From Candidatus Nomurabacteria bacterium CG1_02_43_90 (GTDB lineage Bacteria > Patescibacteriota > Minisyncoccia > Phycocordibacterales > UBA1550), in contig MNVN01000003.1 in assembly GCA_001871765.1 (NCBI GenBank), positions 1-53,110 of the forward strand: a stretch of DNA of 53,110 nt. Reading direction: 5' to 3'. The notes under the pieces were generated by a model that ran no database searches, was not told the origin of the DNA, and was given only the letters and a program-made list of their open reading frames with translations. How positions within the stretch are numbered: the first letter of the stretch is position 1; every line of letters begins with the position of its first letter. Shown piece after piece: positions 1,776 through 19,485 of the stretch. The translations under genes and the position numbers were made by a program.

Positions 1776-1950
1776 AATCTCACCTTTTCTTTTATTAAAA
1801 AACTAAAAATCGGGAATTTCCCGAACATCAAAAACTGAAGAAACTATATCACAGTATTCGTATATATGCAAACCGTATTTTACGGGTGAGTATAGGAGGT
1901 GTCTACTTAGGGGCACTCTTGGAATGCACAACTGAATACTTGGCCTGTTA

Positions 1951-1979
1951 TTGCATCTGAGCACTTTTTTTGCTATATT
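1951..1979 (+). promoter_or_regulatory. Sigma70-like promoter for tRNA-Ile
   Basis: TTGCAT (1951-1956), 17-nt spacer ending in TGc, then TATATT (1974-1979). The tRNA starts at 1991. Confidence 0.55.
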
Positions 1980-1990
1980 CTGTAAGTTCT

Positions 1991-2067
1991 GCGCGATTAG
2001 CTCAGGTGGTTAGAGCGCGTCACTGATAATGACGAGGTCCGAGGTTCGAGTCCTCGATCGCGCACCA
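1991..2067 (+). tRNA. tRNA-Ile (anticodon GAU), CCA encoded
   Basis: Manual cloverleaf: acceptor GCGCGAT/ATCGCGC, D arm GCTC..GAGC, anticodon stem CGTCA/TGACG with loop CTGATAA, T arm CGAGG-TTCGAGT-CCTCG, then ACCA. Confidence 0.93.
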
Positions 2068-2094
2068 ATAAGGAACTTAGCGGTTGAGAACCAA

Positions 2095-2133
2095 CTAAGG
2101 AATGGGCGTGCCTTCGGCACGCCCATTCCTTAG
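2095..2133 (+). terminator. Very stable hairpin after tRNA-Ile
   Basis: CTAAGGAATGGGCGTGCC-TTCG-GCACGCCCATTCCTTAG (about 17 bp, UUCG loop) followed by TTTCG. It is preceded by a smaller GGTT-GAGA-AACC hairpin. Confidence 0.6.
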
Positions 2134-2263
2134 TTTCGAAGAAACCTCTAAGTACTATTTTGTGTGTCTCTATTTTACCAAGCTCGCACCTATTTTCAAA
2201 ATCGCTAATGTGCTACGCGCGGAGCGCGTGGTGGCTCTGACCCAAAATCGTACGCTCGTTGCC

Positions 2264-2477
2264 CCGCCGGCCTCCGCTATCGCTCCGGCGGTGACCTCGC
2301 AGAAATTTTCCCTTACAATTTTCCTTTTGCGCGCGCCCCCTGAAAAAAATTAAAAAAAGGAAAGGGAAATTTCTGCTCGGTTCCGCCCTCCAAGTGTTCG
2401 GGCGGTGCGGCGGGACTTCGACGCTCGGACGGCTCGGCATTCCTCCTCCTCCCCCAACCCCCTCCTGCCGAGCCGTC
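2264..2477 (+). other. GC-rich non-coding block with three hairpins whose loops carry CCUCC-type motifs
   Basis: Stems are CCGCCGG/CCGGCGG (2264-2270/2285-2291), CCGCCC/GGGCGG (2383-2388/2400-2405) and GACGGCTCGGCA/TGCCGAGCCGTC (2428-2439/2466-2477). The third loop reads TTCCTCCTCCTCCCCCAACCCCCTCC. Confidence 0.3.
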
Positions 2478-2508
2478 CTCGCTTCAAAACAGGATGGGTG
2501 CAAAAACA

Positions 2509-2538
2509 TTGACAGTTTAGTACTTCTTATGCTATGAT
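2509..2538 (+). promoter_or_regulatory. Sigma70-like promoter
   Basis: TTGACA (2509-2514), 18-nt spacer, TATGAT (2533-2538), upstream of the ORF at 2587. Confidence 0.55.
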
Positions 2539-2586
2539 CTATTTGGATTCCGAAACCTACAGAAACCCTAAATACAGGAGGACGAA

Positions 2587-3198
2587 ATGACATCGATATA
2601 TGATCTAAGTTGGAGCGAGACCTCGTTTCTCGCTAAACTAAAGTTCTTTTGCAAATCACGAAAGCAAGAGAAGGAGAAAATGCAGTCGAACGATCAACAG
2701 GTGCGAGCTGGAGGATACTCCGCACTCTCAAGCACGTATTACAGCATCGTCGGCACTGCATTCACTCAGCTCAAGGCAGCGCTTCGTCCGAAGTTGCTCG
2801 CTCCAGTTAAAGTCGTGGCGTGGTGCCTCACATGGCTTCCGCTTGCCGCGTACTGCTACTGGCGCATGCTTCCGCTCTCAAACCGCATCGTCGATCTCAT
2901 CGGCTACGACGGCATGTCAGCCGACCAGTGCGATGTTCGCCAAAGCATTCTGCGCTGCCAAGTCGAGTACGACGAGGCGAAGAAGTGCCTTCGAGCCGCA
3001 CTCGCCAAGAATCCCAAAAAGGCCCACACGCGAGGTATGCTTCACGTTGGACTTGCCGAGATATACCAGTATGAGGGAAATAGGCAGAGTGCGCGGACTG
3101 AAGTGCATGCGGCACTTACCGAAGCTGCGGAAGCGGAGAAGCAAGACCCGCGGCAAGCGGCGCGTATCTACAAGCACTGCGCCGACTTGTTCGGATAG
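2587..3198 (+). CDS. Hypothetical protein with a hydrophobic segment and a C-terminal TPR-like helical region
   Basis: 203-aa ORF with a strong AGGAGG (2576-2581) 5 nt before the ATG. It sits in a visibly GC-richer segment than its surroundings. Confidence 0.5.
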   Translation: MTSIYDLSWSETSFLAKLKFFCKSRKQEKEKMQSNDQQVRAGGYSALSSTYYSIVGTAFTQLKAALRPKLLAPVKVVAWCLTWLPLAAYCYWRMLPLSNRIVDLIGYDGMSADQCDVRQSILRCQVEYDEAKKCLRAALAKNPKKAHTRGMLHVGLAEIYQYEGNRQSARTEVHAALTEAAEAEKQDPRQAARIYKHCADLFG

Positions 3199-3369
3199 GT
3201 AGGGGAAAACGATCGCTACCCCACCGCTGATCTTCGTCTCAAGGCGCAGGAACTCGCGCAAGCAACAGGCGCACGCGATCAGCTTCTCAAGCTGTGATGA
3301 TGTGGTACATGCGCCACCAACCGCTTCGTGTTCATTCACGGAGCGGTTTCTTTTTGCTAAAATTTACAG

Positions 3370-4054
3370 ATGAAAACATCTCCGCCAATTAAGAAAATCA
3401 AAAAATGGCTCGCCAAAGAAAATCCGCTCAATCTTCTTGAGGATAATTTTTCTATAAGAGGATATTGATCCAAAAGCATGGTCTGGTCTTTTTGATTATT
3501 TACTTGAAACACCGGAGAAAAAATTTATCTTGCGTTTCAAGGGTCCTGAATGGGGCGAGACAAATGGAGTTATTGATGAATACAAAACACTTAAAAAGAT
3601 TGAGTAATATGAAGTCGGACCAAAGGTGTATTATATGACAGAAAATTTTTTTGGCGAGCCAATGATTTTTGAAGAATATTTGGAAGGGAAATTACTAGGA
3701 GATTTTTCATCGGAGGAGCAGAAAAAATATTTTTCCGAAGTCGCCAAATTCATTTACAAAATAAATTCTATTCCATTTCAAAAAGATGAGTTCCCATTTC
3801 AAGAGCCAATAACGAGTTACACCAAAAGTAAGAACGCGTGGAAAACAAGAATAGAATTTATTTTGGACTGTAAGGAAACGAAAACCTGTGGACAAGAATT
3901 GTTGGCGTTTCTTCCGGGCGTTGAATCAATTCTAAATAAATTTGAAGACCGCTTGCAAAGAGTTCTCACACAGGTTGGCAATTCTTTTGTTTTTGAAAGC
4001 GCACATTTAGGCCATTGCTTGAAAACTTCCGCAGGTTTTCGTTTCTTTAATTAG
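3370..4054 (+). pseudogene. Aminoglycoside/choline-kinase-type phosphotransferase (APH fold), disrupted
   Basis: The reading frame shifts near 3460-3468. There is an in-frame TAA at 3605-3607 between ..TLKKIE and YEVGPKVYYM... The catalytic-loop region is degenerate (AHLGHC), and the ORF ends at a TAG where the family normally continues. Confidence 0.6.
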
Positions 4055-4083
4055 GAGCAGTCAATGATTCTGTTTCTCACTTT

Positions 4084-4407
4084 ATGTTATGGCCGTATTT
4101 AGGTGCAGCACTTTTTGGTCTTTTAATTGCATATATTTTTGAAAAAGAAAAATTTGGAAATATAACTCATTTAGGCAAATACTGGAAAGGTTCCGTTCTC
4201 ATAGGTTTATTTTCTGTCGCGGGTGGGTACGCAATTTTCAAAGCACTTTCTTTTGGTCCACTTTCGGGAGTTTATGCAATTCATCCCGCATATACTTTTA
4301 TTGCAGGAATTTTTGGTTTTATTTTCTTCAAAGAAAAATTAACAAAAAAGAAAATCATACTCGCACTTTTAAGTATTGTTGGTATGATACTTTTGAAAAT
4401 AGGATAG
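4084..4407 (+). CDS. EamA/DMT-type membrane protein, single domain (possibly a gene fragment)
   Basis: 107 aa with several hydrophobic helices. This is about half the size of a typical two-EamA-domain transporter. Confidence 0.45.
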   Translation: MLWPYLGAALFGLLIAYIFEKEKFGNITHLGKYWKGSVLIGLFSVAGGYAIFKALSFGPLSGVYAIHPAYTFIAGIFGFIFFKEKLTKKKIILALLSIVGMILLKIG

Positions 4408-4426
4408 AAAATAACTTTGTTATTTT

Positions 4427-4963
4427 CTATATCGTTTCTAGGATTTTAAAAAAAATTTCATCGCCTTTTGTTTTATCAACAAACATTTCAGGATGAAATT
4501 GTAATCCGTAAATAGGTTTGATTTTATGTTTTATCATTTCAACCCCATGATTTGATGTGGCAAGAGCTTCAATTTCATCCGAAACTTTATCAATAACAAA
4601 CCTGTGGGCTTCGTAAATAGGAATTTCTACATTTTCAAATTTTATATTAGAAATTCCTTTCTCCTTGGCTTCCAGCTCCTTTAGAGTGCAGTTAAAAGCT
4701 GTTGCTACTATTTCACAACCCAAGCAAATACCAATAATTTTTTTATCAGTTTCTCTTATGAAATTAATTTCATTTGCATAGTCTTCTTTATGATTTTTAA
4801 CGGGATTAACACCTGAACCTCCTAAAAAAATTATTAGATCAAATGTATTTGCAAAATTAGGAGAAAATTCTTCTTTTTTACAAATTGAAAAATCAAAATT
4901 ACGAAGTAATTTTTTAGTCTCCTCAATGTTTTTCGTGTGATTATCAACAAGAAGAATTTTCAT
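4427..4963 (-). CDS. Class I glutamine amidotransferase-like protein
   Basis: Nucleophile elbow GICLGCE and the C-terminal LQFHPE His-Glu motif, in 178 aa. Confidence 0.75.
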   Translation of the reverse strand: MKILLVDNHTKNIEETKKLLRNFDFSICKKEEFSPNFANTFDLIIFLGGSGVNPVKNHKEDYANEINFIRETDKKIIGICLGCEIVATAFNCTLKELEAKEKGISNIKFENVEIPIYEAHRFVIDKVSDEIEALATSNHGVEMIKHKIKPIYGLQFHPEMFVDKTKGDEIFFKILETI

Positions 4964-5043
4964 ATAAACTAGTCAGAAGATTCTAAATTTTTTTTAAGCG
5001 CCTTTTCTAGCTCTTGAACCAAATTGTCATTTAAGGTGTCTTT

Positions 5044-5094
5044 ACTATACCAAGTTAGAACCTATTTTCAAAATCGGTTCTAACTTGGTATAGT
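5044..5094. repeat. Perfect 19-bp-stem hairpin
   Basis: ACTATACCAAGTTAGAACC (5044-5062), loop TATTTTCAAAATC, GGTTCTAACTTGGTATAGT (5076-5094). Confidence 0.7.
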
Positions 5095-5332: not shown

Positions 5333-6682
5333 ATGGAAACAAACTACAAAACCTTTTTTAAGGGAAAGAAAATTACCATGCTTGGTCTAGGGCTCTTGGG
5401 GCGGGGTGTGAATGTGGCAAAATTCCTTGCGGAGCTTGGGGCAGACCTTACCATTACTGACCTTAAGTCAAAGGATTTACTTGCGCCGTCAGTCAAACAG
5501 CTCTCAAAATTTAAGAATATACAATTTGTCCTCGGGGAACATCGGCTCAAAGATTTTCAGAAATGCGACATGGTTATCAAATCTGCGGGGGTACCACTTG
5601 ATTCACCTTATATTGCAGAAGCAAGGAAAAATGACATTCCCGTCGAAATGGATGCATCGCTCTTTGCAAAATTTACCCCGGCAACGATTGTGGGGGTTAC
5701 GGGTACGCGGGGTAAATCGACGGTGGCGCACCTCATTTACCACATTCTTGAACATGCTTACTCAAAACATGTTTTTCTAGGAGGAAACGTGCGGGGGATG
5801 GCGACACTACCACTTCTCAAGAAAACAAAGATTGGGGATATTATAGTCCTCGAACTCGACTCATGGCAGTTGCAGGGTTTTGGTGACGCAAGGCTCTCTC
5901 CCCATGTTGCCGTCTTCACCAATTTTTATCCTGACCACTTAAACTACTATCAAGGGGATATGAAGAAATATTTTAACGATAAGGCAAATATTTTTAAATA
6001 TCAAAACGAAGGAGAAGTTTCTATTTTTGGCGAACTTGCCGCAAAAGAGATTAAGACCCGTTTTAAGGGTGATACTCAGGGTGATGTTATTGTTGCGCGT
6101 AAGGGTGTTGTCCCTGCCTCATGGAAGCTCAAAATTCCTGGCGAGCACAATCGCGCGAACATTGCGTGTGCGATTGCCGTATGCAAAGAGCTTGATGTTT
6201 CTGACAAAATTATCAAAGCTGGCGTCGAGAGTTTTGTGGGAGTACCGGGGAGACTTGAGTTTTTGCGTGAAGTACAGGGGGTAAGATATTATAACGATAC
6301 TACTGCTACCACTCCCGACGGAAACCGCGTGGCTCTTGAAGCCCTCGAAAACAAGAAGAAAAATAGCATTGTGTTAATCGCGGGCGGAGCGGATAAAAAT
6401 CTTGACTATACGAGCATGGCGCGGTTGTTGCATAAGACAGTGAAAGGCCTCGTGCTTATTGAAGGAGCGGCAACAGAAAAACTTCTTGCGCTTATCCCAA
6501 AGAAAACTTCATACCCCGTGTATATAGTATCTAGCATGAAAGATGCAGTGGAAGCGGCACGGGATTTTGCACAAAAAGGCGATACGATACTCCTTTCTCC
6601 AGGGGCTGCAAGTTTTGGGGTGTTCAAAAATGAATTTGATAGGGGTGATCAGTTTGTGAAGTTGGTGGAAAAGATAAAGTAA
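5333..6682 (+). CDS. murD: UDP-N-acetylmuramoyl-L-alanine--D-glutamate ligase
   Basis: 449 aa with an N-terminal Rossmann motif GLGLLGRG and the Mur ligase P-loop GVTGTRGKST. It lies adjacent to murC. Confidence 0.9.
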   Translation: METNYKTFFKGKKITMLGLGLLGRGVNVAKFLAELGADLTITDLKSKDLLAPSVKQLSKFKNIQFVLGEHRLKDFQKCDMVIKSAGVPLDSPYIAEARKNDIPVEMDASLFAKFTPATIVGVTGTRGKSTVAHLIYHILEHAYSKHVFLGGNVRGMATLPLLKKTKIGDIIVLELDSWQLQGFGDARLSPHVAVFTNFYPDHLNYYQGDMKKYFNDKANIFKYQNEGEVSIFGELAAKEIKTRFKGDTQGDVIVARKGVVPASWKLKIPGEHNRANIACAIAVCKELDVSDKIIKAGVESFVGVPGRLEFLREVQGVRYYNDTTATTPDGNRVALEALENKKKNSIVLIAGGADKNLDYTSMARLLHKTVKGLVLIEGAATEKLLALIPKKTSYPVYIVSSMKDAVEAARDFAQKGDTILLSPGAASFGVFKNEFDRGDQFVKLVEKIK

Positions 6683-9743: not shown

Positions 9744-9781
9744 CTCTTGAACAATACCATCATTTCCTGTATCCTACCCTT

Positions 9782-10021
9782 ATGTCAAAACATACACTAA
9801 TTATTTTTCTCGGTATCTTCATTGTCGTAGTTGCCCTCGGTGGTTTTCCTTCATGGGCACGCACAACACTTCTTGTGCTAAGCGGAATCGCCGTTATTGT
9901 GTTTGCATACCTTTCTTCAGTTGTTTACTGTAGTAACTGTAAAAAGCTTATTGATGAGGCTGACCAAGTACTCCTTGTTTCGCCTGCATCAAGTGAGATA
10001 ACTTCAAACCCAACACAATGA
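9782..10021 (+). CDS. Hypothetical small membrane protein
   Basis: 79 aa with two hydrophobic helices. Its stop overlaps the next start in an ATGA arrangement at 10018-10021. Confidence 0.4.
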   Translation: MSKHTLIIFLGIFIVVVALGGFPSWARTTLLVLSGIAVIVFAYLSSVVYCSNCKKLIDEADQVLLVSPASSEITSNPTQ

Positions 10022-11283
10022 AGCGGGGATATGCATATTGGGGAATAGGGGCTGGGGTTCTTTTTGTCGGATTGTTTTCCACTTTTTATTTTTTTGCTCC
10101 CGCATTTTCTTCGGTGGGATATGGTACGGACCAAGCGCGTATTAAAGGTGATGCGACCGTTGCTATAACCTCTGAAAAAATCGCAACAAGCACAGAAGAA
10201 CGTTTTGTGGCAACACATGTGAAAACTCCCGAAGCAGTAAAAGCGATTTACATGACAGCATGTGTGGCAACGATGCCAAGTTTCCGCGAGAAGCTCGTGA
10301 AGATTGCTGATACTACCGAAGTGAACAGTATCATTATTGACGTGAAAGATTTTAGCGGTACGATTGCATTCAAACCAGAAGACCCTCTTTTGAAAGATAA
10401 TACGGGAACTGGTTGTCGCACTAAAGATTTGCGTGAGTTTATTGCGGAGCTTCACCAAAAAGGAATTTATACGATTGCCCGCATTACGGTGTTTCAAGAT
10501 CCTTACTATACCAAAGCGCACCCTGACCTTGCGGTACATAAAAAGAGCGACGGGAGTACGTGGAAAGATCGCAAAGGTTTGAGCTTTGTTGATGTGAGCG
10601 CGAAGCCATATTGGGATTATGTGGTAGCGCTTGGTAAAGAGTCGTACGCCCTTGGTTTCGATGAACTTAATTTTGATTATATACGGTTTCCTTCGGATGG
10701 TGATATGAAGGACATTGAGTTTACGTGGAGCAAAGGTATGGGCAAAGCAGAGGCTCTCGAGCATTTTTTTGCCTACCTTCATGATGCACTCAAGGACACA
10801 GGAGTAAAGACCTCTGCCGATCTTTTTGGTATGACGGCAACAAATACGGATGATTTGAATATTGGGCAAGTCCTCGAGAGGGTGATGCCGTACTTTGACT
10901 ATGTGTCACCGATGGTATATCCGTCACACTACCCATCTCATTTTAATGGATGGGCAAACCTCAATGATCATGTGTATGATGTGGTGCACTACTCGATGAG
11001 CCGGGCGGCACTCCGCGCCGTAGCAACGACGACTCCTGTAGAGCATTTGGGTGGTATGCGTATCGGCACCTCTACTCCAGCTACGTATACTAAAGAATCC
11101 TATGATAAAAATAAACTCCGTCCATGGTTGCAAGACTTTAACTATGGTGGCACCTATGGTCCCACAGAAGTCCGCGCGCAGATTCAGGCGACGTATGACT
11201 CTGGTTTGAACTCATGGCTCCTTTGGGATCCAAAAAATGTATATACGGCCGCAGCCTTGAAGGGGGAAGGTGGTGGTCAGTAG
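10018..11283 (+). CDS. Putative glycoside hydrolase (DUF4015-like TIM barrel), membrane anchored
   Basis: 421 aa with an N-terminal TM segment. Blocks VKAIYMTA, IIIDVKDFSG, GIYTIARITVFQD and LNFDYIRFP resemble the putative glycosyl hydrolase family. Confidence 0.65.
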   Translation: MKRGYAYWGIGAGVLFVGLFSTFYFFAPAFSSVGYGTDQARIKGDATVAITSEKIATSTEERFVATHVKTPEAVKAIYMTACVATMPSFREKLVKIADTTEVNSIIIDVKDFSGTIAFKPEDPLLKDNTGTGCRTKDLREFIAELHQKGIYTIARITVFQDPYYTKAHPDLAVHKKSDGSTWKDRKGLSFVDVSAKPYWDYVVALGKESYALGFDELNFDYIRFPSDGDMKDIEFTWSKGMGKAEALEHFFAYLHDALKDTGVKTSADLFGMTATNTDDLNIGQVLERVMPYFDYVSPMVYPSHYPSHFNGWANLNDHVYDVVHYSMSRAALRAVATTTPVEHLGGMRIGTSTPATYTKESYDKNKLRPWLQDFNYGGTYGPTEVRAQIQATYDSGLNSWLLWDPKNVYTAAALKGEGGGQ

Positions 11284-15662: not shown

Positions 15663-16361
15663 TCAGTTTTTCTTAAGTATCATCAAAAAGTTTTCTTCAC
15701 CACTCGGGCGACGAATCACTTCAATTTTTTCTATTGCGAGACCTGCTTGGCGCGCAAGAGAAGCAAGCTCGCGTTTTGAAAGTGCATGCACGAAACGCGC
15801 ATTCTGTTCCTTTCCAAACTTAAGAAAGGCGTCACCAAAATCAAGGCGTGACCTTCTCGTTATCTTTTTAAAAACATGCGCTAGTATGATACGAGGCTTC
15901 GAATGCCAGACGTTCCATGCCGTGAGAACGATGAGGCTCCCTGGTCTTACCATACGGGCCATTTCACGAAGAAACTGCACGCGATAGGCACGTGAGGGAA
16001 TATGGTGGAGCACCGCAAAGGAGACGACTGTTTCGAATGAGTTGTCAGAAAAAGGAAGTGCGAGTGCATCGCCGACAAAAAATGTCGTGCTGGGTCGCTT
16101 TCGATATCGGTCCCGCGCAATCGCAATGAGCCCTTCAGAAAAATCAATCCCGGCGTAGGTTATTTCTTTGTCATCGAGTGCTCCGAGGAAGCGACCATTA
16201 CCACATCCGACATCAAGGATGCGAGCTTTTTTGGGGATAAGGTCAACGATAAAAGAAAGTTCATCCCAGAATTTTCCGCGCGTACGCGAGAAGTCATCGG
16301 TGATTTTTTCATACCCCGCGCGCGACTGTGCGAGGATTTGATTTGCATATTCTTGTTTCAT
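15663..16361 (-). CDS. Trm9/ALKBH8-type class I SAM methyltransferase (putative tRNA cm5U34 methyl-esterifying enzyme)
   Basis: YEKITDDFSRTRGKFW, ILDVGCGNGRFLG, DALALPFSDNSFETVVSFAVLHHIPSR and RPGSLIVLTAWNVW are co-linear with the Trm9 blocks Y..IA.HFS.TR.K.W, DVGCGNGKYL and ISIAV.HH. Divergent from elp3. Confidence 0.7.
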   Translation of the reverse strand: MKQEYANQILAQSRAGYEKITDDFSRTRGKFWDELSFIVDLIPKKARILDVGCGNGRFLGALDDKEITYAGIDFSEGLIAIARDRYRKRPSTTFFVGDALALPFSDNSFETVVSFAVLHHIPSRAYRVQFLREMARMVRPGSLIVLTAWNVWHSKPRIILAHVFKKITRRSRLDFGDAFLKFGKEQNARFVHALSKRELASLARQAGLAIEKIEVIRRPSGEENFLMILKKN

Positions 16362-16443
16362 AGGTAGGATAAGGTAGAATAGTGAAGATTAAATAGTAAA
16401 TAGTAAAATATTTTAAAAACTTTCAACTTTTTCTTACTCTACC

Positions 16444-18399
16444 ATGCTTTTTGCAGACATAAAAACAGACCGCGATCTTGATCTACTCAAACGTCGCATT
16501 GTAGCGGACGATGCTATTTATGCTCGTTTTTTGGAGGTGAGATGTAAACTATATGACCCCGAGGGTAAACTCGCTCCCGAGGGGCATTTTGAGCCTAAAA
16601 AAGGTACTTCGGGGCGTCGTTTGCCCACTAATGCGGAAATGCTCGCTTTGTATAAAGATGGTCTTGAAAAAGGGGAGGAAACGGTTAATACCGACGCTGA
16701 GCTCGTCATGAAGAAATTCAAGGTTCGTAGCAACTCGGGGGTTGCCGTGGTGTCGCTTTTGACGAAGCCATTTCCTTGCCCAGGTCGCTGTACGTATTGC
16801 CCAACTGAGGAGCGTATGCCCAAAAGCTATCTTTCGAAAGAACCCGCAGCGGCGCGCGCACTCGCGAATGATTTTGACCCCTATGCACAGGTGACCAACC
16901 GCTTGCGTGCACTCGCTATGAACGGGCATGCAACCGACAAAATTGAAATGATTGTGATCGGAGGAACGTGGAGTTTCTACCACCCCGTGTATCAAGAAGA
17001 ATTTCTTGCCGAATGTTTTCGTGCGTGCAACAACTTCGGGTTAACGGAAGATATGCAAACAAAAAAAATGGCGAAGTCGCTCCTTGAACTGCAGTCAGAT
17101 AACGAAACTGCACCAACGCGAATCATCGGACTTTCCATTGAAACACGCCCCGACTATATTACCAATTATGAATTGGAACGCTTACGCGCACTCGGGGTTA
17201 CCAAAGTCGAGATTGGCGTGCAACACCTCGATGATGAAATTTTGAAAAAAACAAAACGCGACATGAAGATCGTGCAAGTCAAAGAGGCAACGGAGCGTTT
17301 GCGGAATGCAGGGTTTAAGGTGGTGTACCACATGATGCCCAACCTACCGGGAAGTAGTATCGAGCAAGATATCAAAATGTTTGGCGACCTTTTTTCAGGC
17401 GAGGACTATCACCCCGATATGCTCAAGGTGTACCCGTGTATGGTTCTCGAGGGAAGTGAACTTTTTAATACTTGGCAGGAAGGCCTGCCTGCGTCGCGAC
17501 CGGGATTTTTTTCTACGTACGTTATACTTTGTGATGACAATAGTTTTTATATAGGTCAAACAGGTGATTTGGAAAAACGTTTCCAAAAACATTTAGCAGG
17601 TACTGGAGCAGAGCACACAAAAAAACATCGCCCTCTCAAGGTCATTCATTATGAAGAATACTCAACAAGAGAAGAGGCTGTTAAGCGTGAGAAGTTTTTG
17701 AAAACTGGGTTTGGGCGGAAATGGGTAAAGAGAGAATACGTGGCTGGCCGTACGCGACAGGCAGGGGGCTTTGTGCCCTACACCGACGAGGAACTTGTAC
17801 ACGTTCTCGTTGAAGCAAAAAAACAAGTACCGAAGTACGTTCGTATCATCCGCGTGATACGTGACATACCTGCTACCTATATTCAGGCAGGAAGTAAAGT
17901 TTCCAACTTGCGACAATGGCTGGAAGTGGATATGCGAAAAAATAATTGGCGTTGTAAATGTATTCGCTGTCGTGAAGTGCGCGGAATGGTTGTGGACCCC
18001 AAGGATTTCCCCCTTACCCGTACCGAGTATCGCACCAAAACAGGGAGAGAATTTTTCTTATCATTTGAGGAAGCACACGAGGGGAAGCTTGCTTCATTTC
18101 TTCGTTTGCGCCTGCCCGATAATCACGGAAAGGAATTTGAGAAGGGGACACTGGCAGTCTTGAAAGATGCGGCACTCGTGCGTGAGCTCCATACCTACGG
18201 GCGCATGGCAACGATAGGAGAGGAGGGGACACAGAGCCAGCACCTCGGCTTTGGGAAACAGCTTCTCATCGAAGCGGAGCGTATTGCGAAAGAAGCAGGC
18301 TACAAAAAAGTCGCTATCATTGCGGGTATCGGCGTCCGCGAGTATTACAAAAACCGCGGCTATTCGCTTGAGGGGAGCTATATGGTGAAGTATGTGTAG
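16444..18399 (+). CDS. elp3: Elp3-type radical SAM / GNAT acetyltransferase (tRNA wobble uridine carboxymethylation) with an inserted GIY-YIG domain
   Basis: Radical SAM cluster motif CPGRCTYCP. Elp3 blocks IETRPDY, EIGVQH, YPCMVLEGSELF.. and VRIIRVIRDIP. C-terminal GNAT with QHLGFGKQL. 651 aa. Confidence 0.85.
   Translation: MLFADIKTDRDLDLLKRRIVADDAIYARFLEVRCKLYDPEGKLAPEGHFEPKKGTSGRRLPTNAEMLALYKDGLEKGEETVNTDAELVMKKFKVRSNSGVAVVSLLTKPFPCPGRCTYCPTEERMPKSYLSKEPAAARALANDFDPYAQVTNRLRALAMNGHATDKIEMIVIGGTWSFYHPVYQEEFLAECFRACNNFGLTEDMQTKKMAKSLLELQSDNETAPTRIIGLSIETRPDYITNYELERLRALGVTKVEIGVQHLDDEILKKTKRDMKIVQVKEATERLRNAGFKVVYHMMPNLPGSSIEQDIKMFGDLFSGEDYHPDMLKVYPCMVLEGSELFNTWQEGLPASRPGFFSTYVILCDDNSFYIGQTGDLEKRFQKHLAGTGAEHTKKHRPLKVIHYEEYSTREEAVKREKFLKTGFGRKWVKREYVAGRTRQAGGFVPYTDEELVHVLVEAKKQVPKYVRIIRVIRDIPATYIQAGSKVSNLRQWLEVDMRKNNWRCKCIRCREVRGMVVDPKDFPLTRTEYRTKTGREFFLSFEEAHEGKLASFLRLRLPDNHGKEFEKGTLAVLKDAALVRELHTYGRMATIGEEGTQSQHLGFGKQLLIEAERIAKEAGYKKVAIIAGIGVREYYKNRGYSLEGSYMVKYV
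17485..17769 (+). other. In-frame GIY-YIG (YhbQ/UPF0213-like) nuclease domain inserted into Elp3
   Basis: ~95 aa lie between ..LFNTWQEG and FVPYTDEE. The segment reads YVILCDDNSFYIGQTGDLEKRFQKHLAGTGAEHTKKHRPLKVIHYEEYSTREEAVKREKFLK, the GIY-(10)-YIG..R..H..G..E..K pattern. Confidence 0.75.
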
Positions 18400-18426
18400 T
18401 TACTTTGGGGGCTGAGCATAGAATTA

Positions 18427-19485
18427 CTAATGATTATTTTCAGATTCTTTAGGTAGCAATTTTAAAGAAAGGATCATCCTCAATTTTTTGTCATAAAAAT
18501 AAGCTATATAGCTCAACATAATAGCTACTATCATCATAATTCCACCGCGCAATTCAAGTGAGCCGTAAGATTCAAAATATTTAATAAGCGTGTTGCCTAC
18601 TGTTTGATGTATCAAATATAAGGGGTAAGTTATTCCCCCAATAACCGCACTGATTACTAGCCATCTAGGCGAATGTATTTTAGGAGATAAGTAAACAAGA
18701 ATTATTGTTGTAATAAAAAATAGGGGATGTAGCCACATCACAAAATTAGTGTCTATTGGATTGGGTGAAAGATATGGAGGTAACGCCCGAGCTGAAATAT
18801 ATGTTGAATAGACTGCGACTATAAAAAGAAATCCGTAGTCATAGCATTTTTGCTTAAGCGAAGAGTAGTCAGTACTTACTATTATGGAAAGCGTTATCCC
18901 GAACAAGAAGTATGATGCGTGTCTAACAAGTAAAGTTTTTGCGATAAAATTATTATCAATAGTAAGTAGAAATGCTACAGTACTAACAACTAACCAACCT
19001 AGTGTAAACGTGCGAATGTTTTTCCATGAGAAAAAATACACAAATAATCCTATCGCTACATAAAAGATAAGCTCAACAACAAGAGACCAATACGCGGCGT
19101 CCACAAGCCTTAGGTACCCAAAAGCATTACTTAACTTTTCCCCAAGCATCGTCATACTAATAAGGTACTCTTGGAATAAAACAGGATTACCATTCGGTAT
19201 TAGTAACGTGAAAATATAAGTGGCAGTACAGATCATCCAAAACAAAGGGAAAAGCCTAATCCATCTTTTTAGGGCAAATTTCTTGATAGAAGTACGGGAG
19301 ATGCTTTGAGAGATTACAAAACCACTAATTATAAAAAAAATAGGGACACCAAGGTTGCCATATCTGTACCACGCTAGGTCTGGAGACCACCAGAGGAAAT
19401 AGTGAAAACTCATCACCCAAAAAGCTGCAAAGAAGCGAAGAATATCTAAAAGAGAATAATGGGTTTTCATGTTTGATATCAACAA
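18427..19485 (-). CDS. Acyltransferase family 3 (membrane O-acyltransferase)
   Basis: 352 aa, polytopic. N-terminal LDILRFFAAFWVMSFHY is typical of acyltransferase_3. Confidence 0.8.
   Translation of the reverse strand: MLISNMKTHYSLLDILRFFAAFWVMSFHYFLWWSPDLAWYRYGNLGVPIFFIISGFVISQSISRTSIKKFALKRWIRLFPLFWMICTATYIFTLLIPNGNPVLFQEYLISMTMLGEKLSNAFGYLRLVDAAYWSLVVELIFYVAIGLFVYFFSWKNIRTFTLGWLVVSTVAFLLTIDNNFIAKTLLVRHASYFLFGITLSIIVSTDYSSLKQKCYDYGFLFIVAVYSTYISARALPPYLSPNPIDTNFVMWLHPLFFITTIILVYLSPKIHSPRWLVISAVIGGITYPLYLIHQTVGNTLIKYFESYGSLELRGGIMMIVAIMLSYIAYFYDKKLRMILSLKLLPKESENNH

Follow-up and report, generated by a model that had tools for sequence, protein, structure and literature searches.

A GIY-YIG nuclease domain inside a Patescibacteria Elp3 is probably one copy of a palindrome-bounded mobile element translated in frame with its host

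The known GIY-YIG homing endonucleases, encoded within introns or between genes, bind DNA through a domain at the C terminus and bring translation signals of their own. Elements of the IS200/IS605 type use an HUH (Y1) transposase, and each of their ends has its own hairpin. A different kind of intragenic DNA is represented by the Rickettsia palindromic elements (RPEs) and other intragenic transposable elements of the miniature inverted-repeat kind (MITEs), short palindromes that lie in frame within unrelated genes and are translated as peptide segments of the host protein (PMC10969869). In the rRNA genes of the candidate phyla radiation (CPR), all GIY-YIG proteins are reported to lie in insertions that are unlike group I and group II introns and occupy scattered, poorly conserved sites (Tsurumaki et al. 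2024, PMC11270868); the main text of that paper contains none of the terms "inverted repeat", "palindrom" and "hairpin". Here we analyse a stretch of 53,110 nt from Candidatus Nomurabacteria bacterium CG1_02_43_90 (contig MNVN01000003.1, positions 1 to 53,110 of the forward strand; hereafter the window), in which the gene for the tRNA modification enzyme Elp3 contains an in-frame GIY-YIG nuclease module. We consider it probable that this insert represents a single copy of a selfish mobile element, which lacks its own start, stop and promoter and is made as an additional domain when the host protein is translated.

The host gene occupies positions 16,444 to 18,399 of the plus strand and encodes 651 residues including the insert. 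It was assigned to Elp3, the radical S-adenosylmethionine (SAM)/GNAT enzyme that modifies tRNA U34, by its matches to the NCBIfam model TIGR01211 and to PDB chains. The TIGR01211 match is full-length and above the curated cut-off (E 8.9e-153, 509.5 bits against 350), and it comes in two pieces, residues 82-348 and the remainder, with the split falling at the insert. Pfam places Radical_SAM at residues 112-308, GIY-YIG (PF01541; E 1.7e-16, 60.7 bits against a cut-off of 22.6) at residues 357-423 and Radical_SAM_C at residues 439-497, together with a weak GNAT match. The solved Elp3 chains match the window protein at E 7e-110, and its residues 88-347 and 441-649 align to adjacent residues of these chains; residue 279 of 6IAZ flanks both pieces, and therefore the approximately 94 residues between them have no counterpart in Elp3. 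In an alignment with ten relatives, the eight insert-free Elp3 proteins read TWKE-GGFVPY (TWKE-GGFxPY), with nothing homologous to the insert at this site, and the window protein reads TWQEG-[LPAS...RTRQAG]-GFVPY. The three closest relatives (P0002-P0004; 92% identity, 557 residues) are exactly 94 residues shorter at the same place. The insertion comprises exactly 94 codons (282 nt), lies between TWQEG and GFVPY and is absent from Elp3 orthologues that are 92-93% identical.

An earlier note on this DNA, made from its letters alone, had placed about 95 inserted residues between the radical SAM domain and the linker at positions 17,485-17,769. Both the alignment and the mapping onto PDB chains agree with it, and the coordinates, which correspond to L348-G442, are right within the ambiguity of the G/G junction. 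Its description of an undisrupted frame that carries the nuclease as an internal domain of Elp3 also holds. The comparison of base composition that it had proposed reveals a G+C content of 0.436 in the insert against 0.478 and 0.499 in the flanks, and at third codon positions (GC3) 0.34 against 0.50 and 0.53. Two more full-length Elp3 genes, L002 and L003, which come from independent assemblies and encode proteins 64-69% identical to the window's Elp3, have the insert at the same codon, as does one fragment (P0282). Because the same insert occupies the same codon in independent assemblies, it is neither a chance match nor an assembly artefact, and the Elp3 insertion is confirmed as real.

The radical-SAM cysteines C112/C116/C119, the zinc cysteines C504/C506/C509 and the acetyl-CoA motif Q597-x-Q599-H600...G604 are invariant across 62 Elp3 proteins, the window protein included. 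The ratio of nonsynonymous to synonymous substitution rates (dN/dS) of the host Elp3 is 0.055 between the window and the insert-free orthologue in L001. Elp3 with the insert probably stays functional, and the nuclease domain probably gives Elp3 no function of its own.

Comparison with the empty site in L001, with L002 and L003 and with the boundaries found across the family places the element at positions 17,484-17,765 of the plus strand (282 nt, CCTGCCTGCGTCGCG...CGCGACAGGCAGG). With its first base (C) the element supplies the third position of the Gly347 codon, and with its last two (GG) it opens the next Gly codon; it sits after the second base of a host codon. Deleting it restores GAA GG^G GGC TTT (E-G-G-F), and the empty site of the 93%-identical orthologue in L001 reads GAG GGC GGG TTC. 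No target-site duplication is seen at the Elp3 site or at the restored sites of the family, where no bases are repeated beyond the G/G ambiguity. The 94 codons of the window insert contain neither a Met nor a stop codon, and therefore the insert can be expressed only as part of Elp3. 

All parts of the element lie on the plus strand. The left terminal arm (17,484-17,503, encoding (G)LPASRPG) consists of an outer helix strand (17,484-17,492), a 2-nt bulge (17,493-17,494), a central helix strand (17,495-17,498) and an inner helix strand (17,499-17,503). The right terminal arm (17,744-17,765, encoding AGRTRQAG) runs from the inner helix strand (17,744-17,748) through a 4-nt bulge (17,749-17,752) and the central helix strand (17,753-17,756) to the outer helix strand (17,757-17,765). 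Both arms were delimited by inverted-repeat pairs, minimum free energy (MFE) folds and pair counts; when the whole element is folded, the MFE structure has its two ends paired in each of the three Elp3 copies. Between the arms lie the GIY-YIG catalytic core (17,512-17,712, residues 357-423), identified by PF01541, invariant columns, AlphaFold2 (AF2) and Foldseek, and a family-specific basic C-terminal helix, (L)KTGFGRKWVKREY (17,713-17,743), which is marked by invariant columns and falls outside the UPF0213 alignment. The 53-kb window contains no second copy of the element and no miniature hairpin of the kind described below.

The termini of the family are imperfect inverted repeats of the form CCTGCCTGCG(C/T)CGCG ... 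CGCG(G/A)CAGGCAGG. They can fold into a stem that passes from an outer helix of 9 bp through a bulge of 2 nt on the 5' strand, a CGCG/CGCG helix of 4 bp and a bulge of 4 nt on the 3' strand (CGGA or CGGG) to an inner helix of about 5 bp. In genome loci found by peptide patterns lying outside the termini, the terminal codons are near-fixed even at synonymous positions (Pro always CCT, the first Ala GCG, Gln CAG, the last Ala GCA), yet inside these elements GC3 varies between 0.17 and 0.74. This codon usage indicates that the termini are constrained as nucleic acid and not as peptide. Among 42 distinct sequences, 91.3% of the stem cells are paired as against 29-50% when the partner is slid by 1-3 columns, a control that is partly favourable by construction, as the structure was derived from the same 42 sequences; the covariation score of the stem exceeds that of 500 out of 500 shuffles. 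Most informative for terminal pairing, on comparison of the sequences, is the inner helix, in which the pairing partners are the third positions of an Arg codon (CGN) and of a Gly codon (GGN). The states of this pair are GC 17, AU 8, CG 4, GU 3 and UA 2 in the set of 42, and GC 39, AT 21, CG 16 and TA 6 in a set of 95 whose selection left these positions free. A test for strand bias of wobble pairs, which would separate RNA-level from DNA-level selection, found none: G-U-type mismatches number 23 and A-C-type mismatches 28, and therefore there is no sign of selection on the sense-strand RNA only. A DNA hairpin or cruciform, or both strands, appears to fit better as the selected form.

The protein encoded between these termini is, by sequence and predicted structure, a nuclease of the UPF0213/Slx1 type. 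The presumed catalytic residues Y359, Y369, R379, H383 and E416 stand at family columns that are invariant or at least 90% conserved, and these Tyr, Tyr, Arg, His and Glu columns align with those of UPF0213 proteins. The AF2 model of the module alone has a predicted local distance difference test (pLDDT) score of 92.8 and displays the beta-beta-alpha-beta-alpha arrangement of the GIY-YIG fold, with strands at 10-17, 22-27 and 51-60 and helices between them. In Foldseek the top five matches are led by UPF0213 (1ZG2, 1YWL), with Slx1 next (7CQ3, 6SEH), each at a probability of 0.99-1.00, and profile comparison with solved structures gives 1YWL at E 1.7e-17 and 1ZG2 at E 5e-14. The earlier note's reading of a complete UPF0213/YhbQ-type GIY-YIG module is therefore upheld by model, fold and nearest solved structures alike. 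The basic helix KTGFGRKW(L/V)KRE lies outside the UPF0213 alignment, and its residues G76, F77, G78, R79, K80, W81 and R84 are invariant (alignment A2). The module measures 94 residues and has no further domain; the NCBIfam model TIGR01453 for group I intron endonucleases scores it at 17-22 bits against a cut-off of 56. The dN/dS of the module is 0.10-0.20 among the three Elp3 copies, which means that the nuclease protein is itself under selection. In an AF2 model of full-length Elp3, built from 11 sequences with a mean pLDDT of 68 and used only for the confidence profile around the insert, the insert scores 87-91 and the adjoining low-confidence segments on both sides about 50-60. The insert lies there between helices 339-345 and 448-460, and the model fits an independent domain in a loop of Elp3.

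How widespread is this element? When the 95-residue module alone served as query, it retrieved short "proteins", all of them with LPAPR... and ...ARQAG at opposite ends and, around these, fragments of HsdS, HsdM, DUF1156 and other proteins. A profile of the module against 1.84 billion representative proteins matched 168 clusters at E<=1e-30 and 4567 at E<=1e-10, and most of the best 150 matches were proteins of 200-1100 residues with the module inside. A scan of the GTDB with one genome per species yielded 148 confirmed hits, distributed over Patescibacteria, Desulfobacterota, Nitrospirota, Verrucomicrobiota, Planctomycetota, Bacteroidota, Acidobacteriota and further phyla. With hardly an exception, module and host share a single open frame at these loci, with host codons numbering tens to hundreds on either side. 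At least 120 matches were obtained from metagenome contigs by the DNA termini only (CCTGCCTGCGCCGCG, 240-270 nt, CGCGGCAGGCAGG). Of the 166 elements in the pooled loci, 164 have a frame that is open into the host at either end, and the host sites fall into at least 67 distinct classes. The elements are 279, 282 (112 copies), 285, 288, 291, 294, 297 or 309 nt long, the exception being one of 286 nt that has a stop.

The commonest hosts are type I restriction specificity subunits (HsdS), which account for 63 of the 107 host proteins scanned, all of which match PF01541. The others include DUF1156 methylases, MsrB, HsdR, pseudouridine synthases, trigger factor, type III methylases, TatD, QueC, TrmD, ArgRS and cobalamin adenosyltransferase. 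A query spanning the junction added Ogt/MGMT, NUDIX, RibD_C, an HhH-GPD glycosylase and a fourth, frameshifted copy in Elp3, and HsdM, UvrB and DnaG are also among the host genes. A stand-alone gene for the module, with its own start and stop, never occurred in the sets examined. Collections of plasmids and phages from cultured organisms contained no full element, only free-standing yazA-like genes that match the core (residues 12-75), and the viral contigs of IMG/VR gave one distant hit. The apparent restriction of the element to uncultured lineages may explain why nobody has noticed it.

Several members depart from this pattern. One HsdS gene contains two separate GIY-YIG elements about 30 codons apart (P0135, 655 residues; L023, 2629-2907 and 3001-3285). 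Decaying copies include P0282, a fragment of 154 residues with the fourth Elp3-borne module and a frameshift after GTGADH, and two metagenome copies with internal stops on the minus strand of their contigs (L125, 451-736; L195, 748-1029), one of them of 286 nt. Some elements reach 309 nt owing to a further small palindrome, which encodes LPVRNTQTG(T/A)RQAG and lies immediately within the right terminus (right ends of L018 and L034; L038). A sub-family of modules without the LPAPRP and RTRQAG ends (L033, L035, L051, L064, L067, L071, L072, L074, L077, L080 and L081), mostly from Bacteroidota, has ...WPVCV(Q)RTGRK... before and ...GRNKPYF after the module and lies in very long open reading frames (ORFs); its PVCVQ(R)TG peptide could be encoded by a second type of palindrome.

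Removal of the elements in silico exposes a common target. The restored sites follow the consensus G(-2) A(-1) ^ Y(+1) G(+2) R(+3), with 54, 47, 49, 45 and 54 of 64 sites agreeing at the respective positions, and the Elp3 site, which is GG^GGG in the window and GG^CGG in the insert-free orthologue, fits its minor form. At all ten HsdS sites of the type DPND^EPAS, the base after the element is C or T and restores the split codon (Asp GAY in nine, Tyr TAT in L036); therefore, the boundaries are fixed at CCTGCCTG...CAGGCAGG.

The same 9-nt termini also bound much smaller units. In 1.39 Mb of DNA around the elements, we found 55 solo hairpins, mostly of 30, 33, 36 or 39 nt (a few of 18-66 nt), with the ends CCTGCCTGC...GCAGGCAGG. 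Nearly all of them lie inside long ORFs, typically in the same codon phase, where they are read as DLPA...QAG and add peptides such as DLPAASRDAAQAG, with up to three hairpins per ORF. They come from the loci L032, L045, L052, L063, L074, L078 and L093-L202; examples are L165 at 6462-6491 and L147 at 2116, 2185 and 2614. The 30-mer in L165 is an exact join of the 15 nt at the left end of the full element to the 15 nt at its right end, the product expected of an internal deletion, and one 18-mer consists of the two 9-nt outer arms joined together. On these sequence grounds, the solo hairpins are probably non-autonomous derivatives of the GIY-YIG element, or possibly its footprints.

The distribution of the insert in Elp3 is sporadic. 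In a tree of 62 Elp3 proteins, calculated with the insert columns removed, the three full-length carriers fall into three clades, each with insert-free sisters, and among the 120 Elp3 relatives listed only three carry the insert, the 92-93% identical orthologues having empty sites. Vertical descent of the insert is disfavoured because it would require many exact deletions. The modules form a clade, ((window, L002), L003), which differs from the host tree, where L002 and L003 group together. Module and host distances are also at odds, and in both directions: between the window and L002 the module dN is 0.143 and the host dN 0.296, and between L002 and L003 the module dN is 0.275 and the host dN 0.174. 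These conflicts argue against simple inheritance, in a manner that is suggestive rather than decisive given that the module has 94 codons only. Across the family, the modules cluster by host site, which on sequence comparison is a pattern of the homing type, with a lineage of its own at each site and rare jumps between sites. The earlier note had left two alternatives: a still-mobile endonuclease that invaded the gene in frame and a new, nuclease-equipped variant of Elp3. The former is favoured, and the latter is disfavoured because of the few carriers, their three separate clades and their insert-free sisters. That note saw a nuclease in one gene; beyond it, the insert turns out to be a DNA element with terminal inverted repeats, a large in-frame family, a target consensus and miniature derivatives.

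How might such an element move? We hypothesize that the nuclease, made within the host protein, drives the spread of the element. In one possible route, it would cut empty GA^YGR sites, and recombinational repair would copy the element from a filled allele, as in homing; this would explain the site-specific lineages and the lack of a target duplication. In another, the nuclease, as one of the structure-specific Slx1/UPF0213 kind, would have as its substrate a hairpin or cruciform folded from the two ends of the element; this would explain the conservation in the inner helix of pairing and not of sequence alone, and the multiplication of mini-hairpins that consist of termini only. Both routes are compatible with the data and could act together, and rare jumps to new sites and mobilisation in trans of the 30-39 nt hairpins would follow. 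Survival in frame would need no special mechanism, since insertions in the other two phases or with a stop would destroy the host gene and be lost. We put forward, more tentatively and as somewhat short of an even chance, that these units form an autonomous class of element: a 282-bp palindrome-bounded unit whose sole gene encodes an Slx1/UPF0213-like structure-specific nuclease, expressed only as an internal domain, which would recognise its own hairpin or cruciform and/or GA^YGR and move the element and its 30-39 nt miniatures into and out of coding sequence with the frame kept. If this is true, the class would be a DNA-level counterpart of the intein and a source of insertions of 10-94 residues across many phyla.

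Several points weigh against mobility. The known GIY-YIG homing endonucleases are unlike a catalytic domain of 94 residues that has no separate DNA-binding domain, and we know of no GIY-YIG DNA transposase in bacteria. The activity and substrate of the nuclease and the activity of the insert-bearing Elp3 are predicted only. Clustering by site could mean that vertical descent, or the transfer of entire host genes, accounts for much of the spread. Alleles with identical flanks that were filled in one case and empty in another were not seen, the metagenomes of the Joint Genome Institute (JGI) yielding 0 empty or footprint alleles with the window's exact flanks, and no mobility event was caught in the act. 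Nor were near-identical copies found in different genes, the best cross-site pair having 81.9% nucleotide identity. The window copy forms 16 of the 18 consensus stem pairs and departs from the terminal consensus at 17,494 (T), 17,751 (T) and 17,757 (A); this slightly degenerate copy may no longer move.

The closest cross-site pair joins two codons of MsrB, invaded in different genomes (L029, GSIKYQDD^HGATE, against L043/L114, HLGHVFDD^GPTKTG) and is a candidate for a short-range jump.

The degeneracy of the window copy leads to a reading in which it is a fossil: an insert derived from the family but now immobile in this lineage, its nuclease a passenger that is retained because imprecise deletion would break Elp3. 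The termini of the window copy are the most diverged in the set of 42, with three departures and two lost pairs; it is the only one with a mismatch in the ninth pair of the outer helix (17,492:17,757, C:A) and the only one with T at 17,494. The lack of a second copy or mini-hairpin in the window and the existence of decaying copies elsewhere (P0282, L125, L195) also agree with this reading. However, all near-invariant nuclease residues of the window copy are intact, the dN/dS of the module indicates that the protein stayed under selection, and the closest orthologues are insert-free, so that the gain is not ancient; we therefore consider a fossil unlikely, if still the foremost of the alternatives. 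Selection on the protein could instead reflect exaptation, with the nuclease serving Elp3 biology, for example by cleavage or surveillance of bound tRNA or another nucleic acid. Elp3 does bind nucleic acid, its gene has remained intact under strong constraint, purifying selection acts on the insert, and several Elp3 genes use the same site. Against this stand the rarity of the insert among Elp3 relatives, its scatter over three clades with insert-free sisters, the presence of the same module with the same DNA termini at the many unrelated host sites and the nucleotide-level conservation of the termini, which protein function cannot explain. We regard exaptation as very improbable compared with the selfish mobile element that we favour.

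In a further reading, the insert would be removed from the mRNA, a stem resembling the archaeal bulge-helix-bulge marking it for excision and religation, so that mature Elp3 would be free of the domain. The order helix, bulge, 4-bp helix, bulge, helix, in which the outer helix adjoins the 5' bulge and the inner helix the 3' bulge, is in keeping with this, and the stem is backed by covariation and by MFE folds that pair the element ends. Yet a length that is a multiple of three and an open downstream frame would be needless if the insert were spliced, and both are found in 164 of 166 copies; moreover, the bulges measure 2 and 4 nt and not 3 and 3, the balance of G-U-type and A-C-type mismatches speaks against selection on the sense RNA only, and no Rfam family matches. 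Bacteria are not known to possess the archaeal splicing endonuclease, and we give RNA-level excision very little credence. Even less plausible, indeed barely conceivable, is an intein or an intron-encoded homing endonuclease of a known kind. An in-frame insert with a sporadic distribution at a conserved site of a conserved gene does recall the intein lifestyle, but the 282 nt are wholly nuclease ORF, which leaves no room for a ribozyme core. An intein was rejected: the junctions EG/LPAS and RQAG/GF have no Cys/Ser/Thr nucleophile and no His-Asn, in agreement with the earlier note, and Pfam finds no Hint domain. A group I or group II intron was likewise rejected, as an Rfam scan of positions 16,000-19,000 at E<=1 returned only a sub-threshold small RNA hit.

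Next to Elp3, a class I SAM methyltransferase (Methyltransf_11/25) is encoded divergently on the minus strand of the window (15,663-16,361), and the arrangement is the same in L001 (7204-7902), L002 (7266-7961) and L003 (3748-4593). It is weakly similar to the Trm9 chain of 5CM2 (E 1e-9) and could be a bacterial counterpart of the Trm9 step, which methylates the Elp3 product cm5U. The insert-free L001 contig contains Fic/RhuM, TraG/TrwB-type coupling protein and RelB-ParE genes around Elp3 (1884-5080 and 9746-10297); this neighbourhood is rich in mobile and defence genes and, downstream of Elp3, has no synteny to the window.

If our reading is true, such elements would represent a third way for selfish DNA to live inside an essential gene with the host surviving, beside self-splicing introns and inteins, namely in frame, as a compact side domain and by host translation. 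It would account for so far unexplained GIY-YIG "fusions" and LPAP...RQAG insertions in metagenome annotations, especially in HsdS and in the small housekeeping enzymes of Patescibacteria, and the DNA signature CCTGCCTGCGCCGCG ... CGCGGCAGGCAGG would let annotators recognise and mask the elements. There might also be new enzymology in a GIY-YIG nuclease of minimal size whose substrates are a defined hairpin and a short target. The insertion sites would amount to a natural catalogue of positions in dozens of protein families that tolerate the insertion of a 94-residue domain, the loop of Elp3 between the radical-SAM domain and the Radical_SAM_C segment being one such permissive place.

In the open-access literature and bioRxiv we found no description of GIY-YIG in Elp3 or HsdS, nor one of a palindrome-bounded, in-frame, GIY-YIG-encoding element, for which a prior description is nevertheless possible. 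The CPR rRNA insertions resemble the element in phylum, enzyme superfamily and the essential nature of the invaded gene, but they lie in rRNA and not in protein genes; they may be the same family in an RNA gene. As regards the catalytic core, the closest relatives by sequence and fold are the UPF0213/YhbQ/YazA proteins and Slx1, and free-standing genes of the yazA type from plasmids and phages match the core only (residues 13-74). These proteins are products of stand-alone genes or subunits of repair complexes, whereas the module has the KTGFGRKWLKRE helix and linkers (LPAPRPG and GRTRQAG) encoded by the inverted repeats, and it lacks the own start and stop of the stand-alone UPF0213/YhbQ protein of about 90-110 residues. 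GIY-YIG homing endonucleases such as I-TevI and the Seg and Mob enzymes share with the element a GIY-YIG domain tied to the spread of DNA into cognate genes. Inteins are similar in being selfish, in frame, translated with the host and sporadic at a fixed site with site-specific lineages; they differ in having a splicing apparatus and LAGLIDADG or HNH nucleases, while the element has GIY-YIG and terminal inverted repeats and its domain presumably stays in the mature protein.

At the DNA level, elements of the IS200/IS605 type are alike in their lack of a target duplication, their short target and their conserved hairpin DNA; in the element, however, the two ends pair with each other and the sole encoded protein is a GIY-YIG nuclease. 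An archaeal bulge-helix-bulge would fit in the order of helices and bulges and in the 4-bp central helix, but has two bulges of 3 nt where the element has bulges of 2 and 4 nt. The likeness to RPEs is closest in form, since both are in-frame, translated palindromes, and the 30-39 nt mini-hairpins behave alike. Like MITEs and RPEs, the element has terminal inverted repeats, a small size and many in-frame copies in unrelated genes; the non-autonomy of MITEs, which encode no enzyme, is found only in the 30-39 nt derivatives and not in the 282-nt element. RPEs are of about 150 bp, are restricted to Rickettsia and encode a conserved peptide without an enzyme, whereas the element has 282 nt, occurs in many phyla and encodes a GIY-YIG nuclease, and its GA^YGR target without target duplication is a feature of its own. 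The element appears to combine an in-frame palindrome of the RPE kind with the lifestyle of a homing endonuclease.

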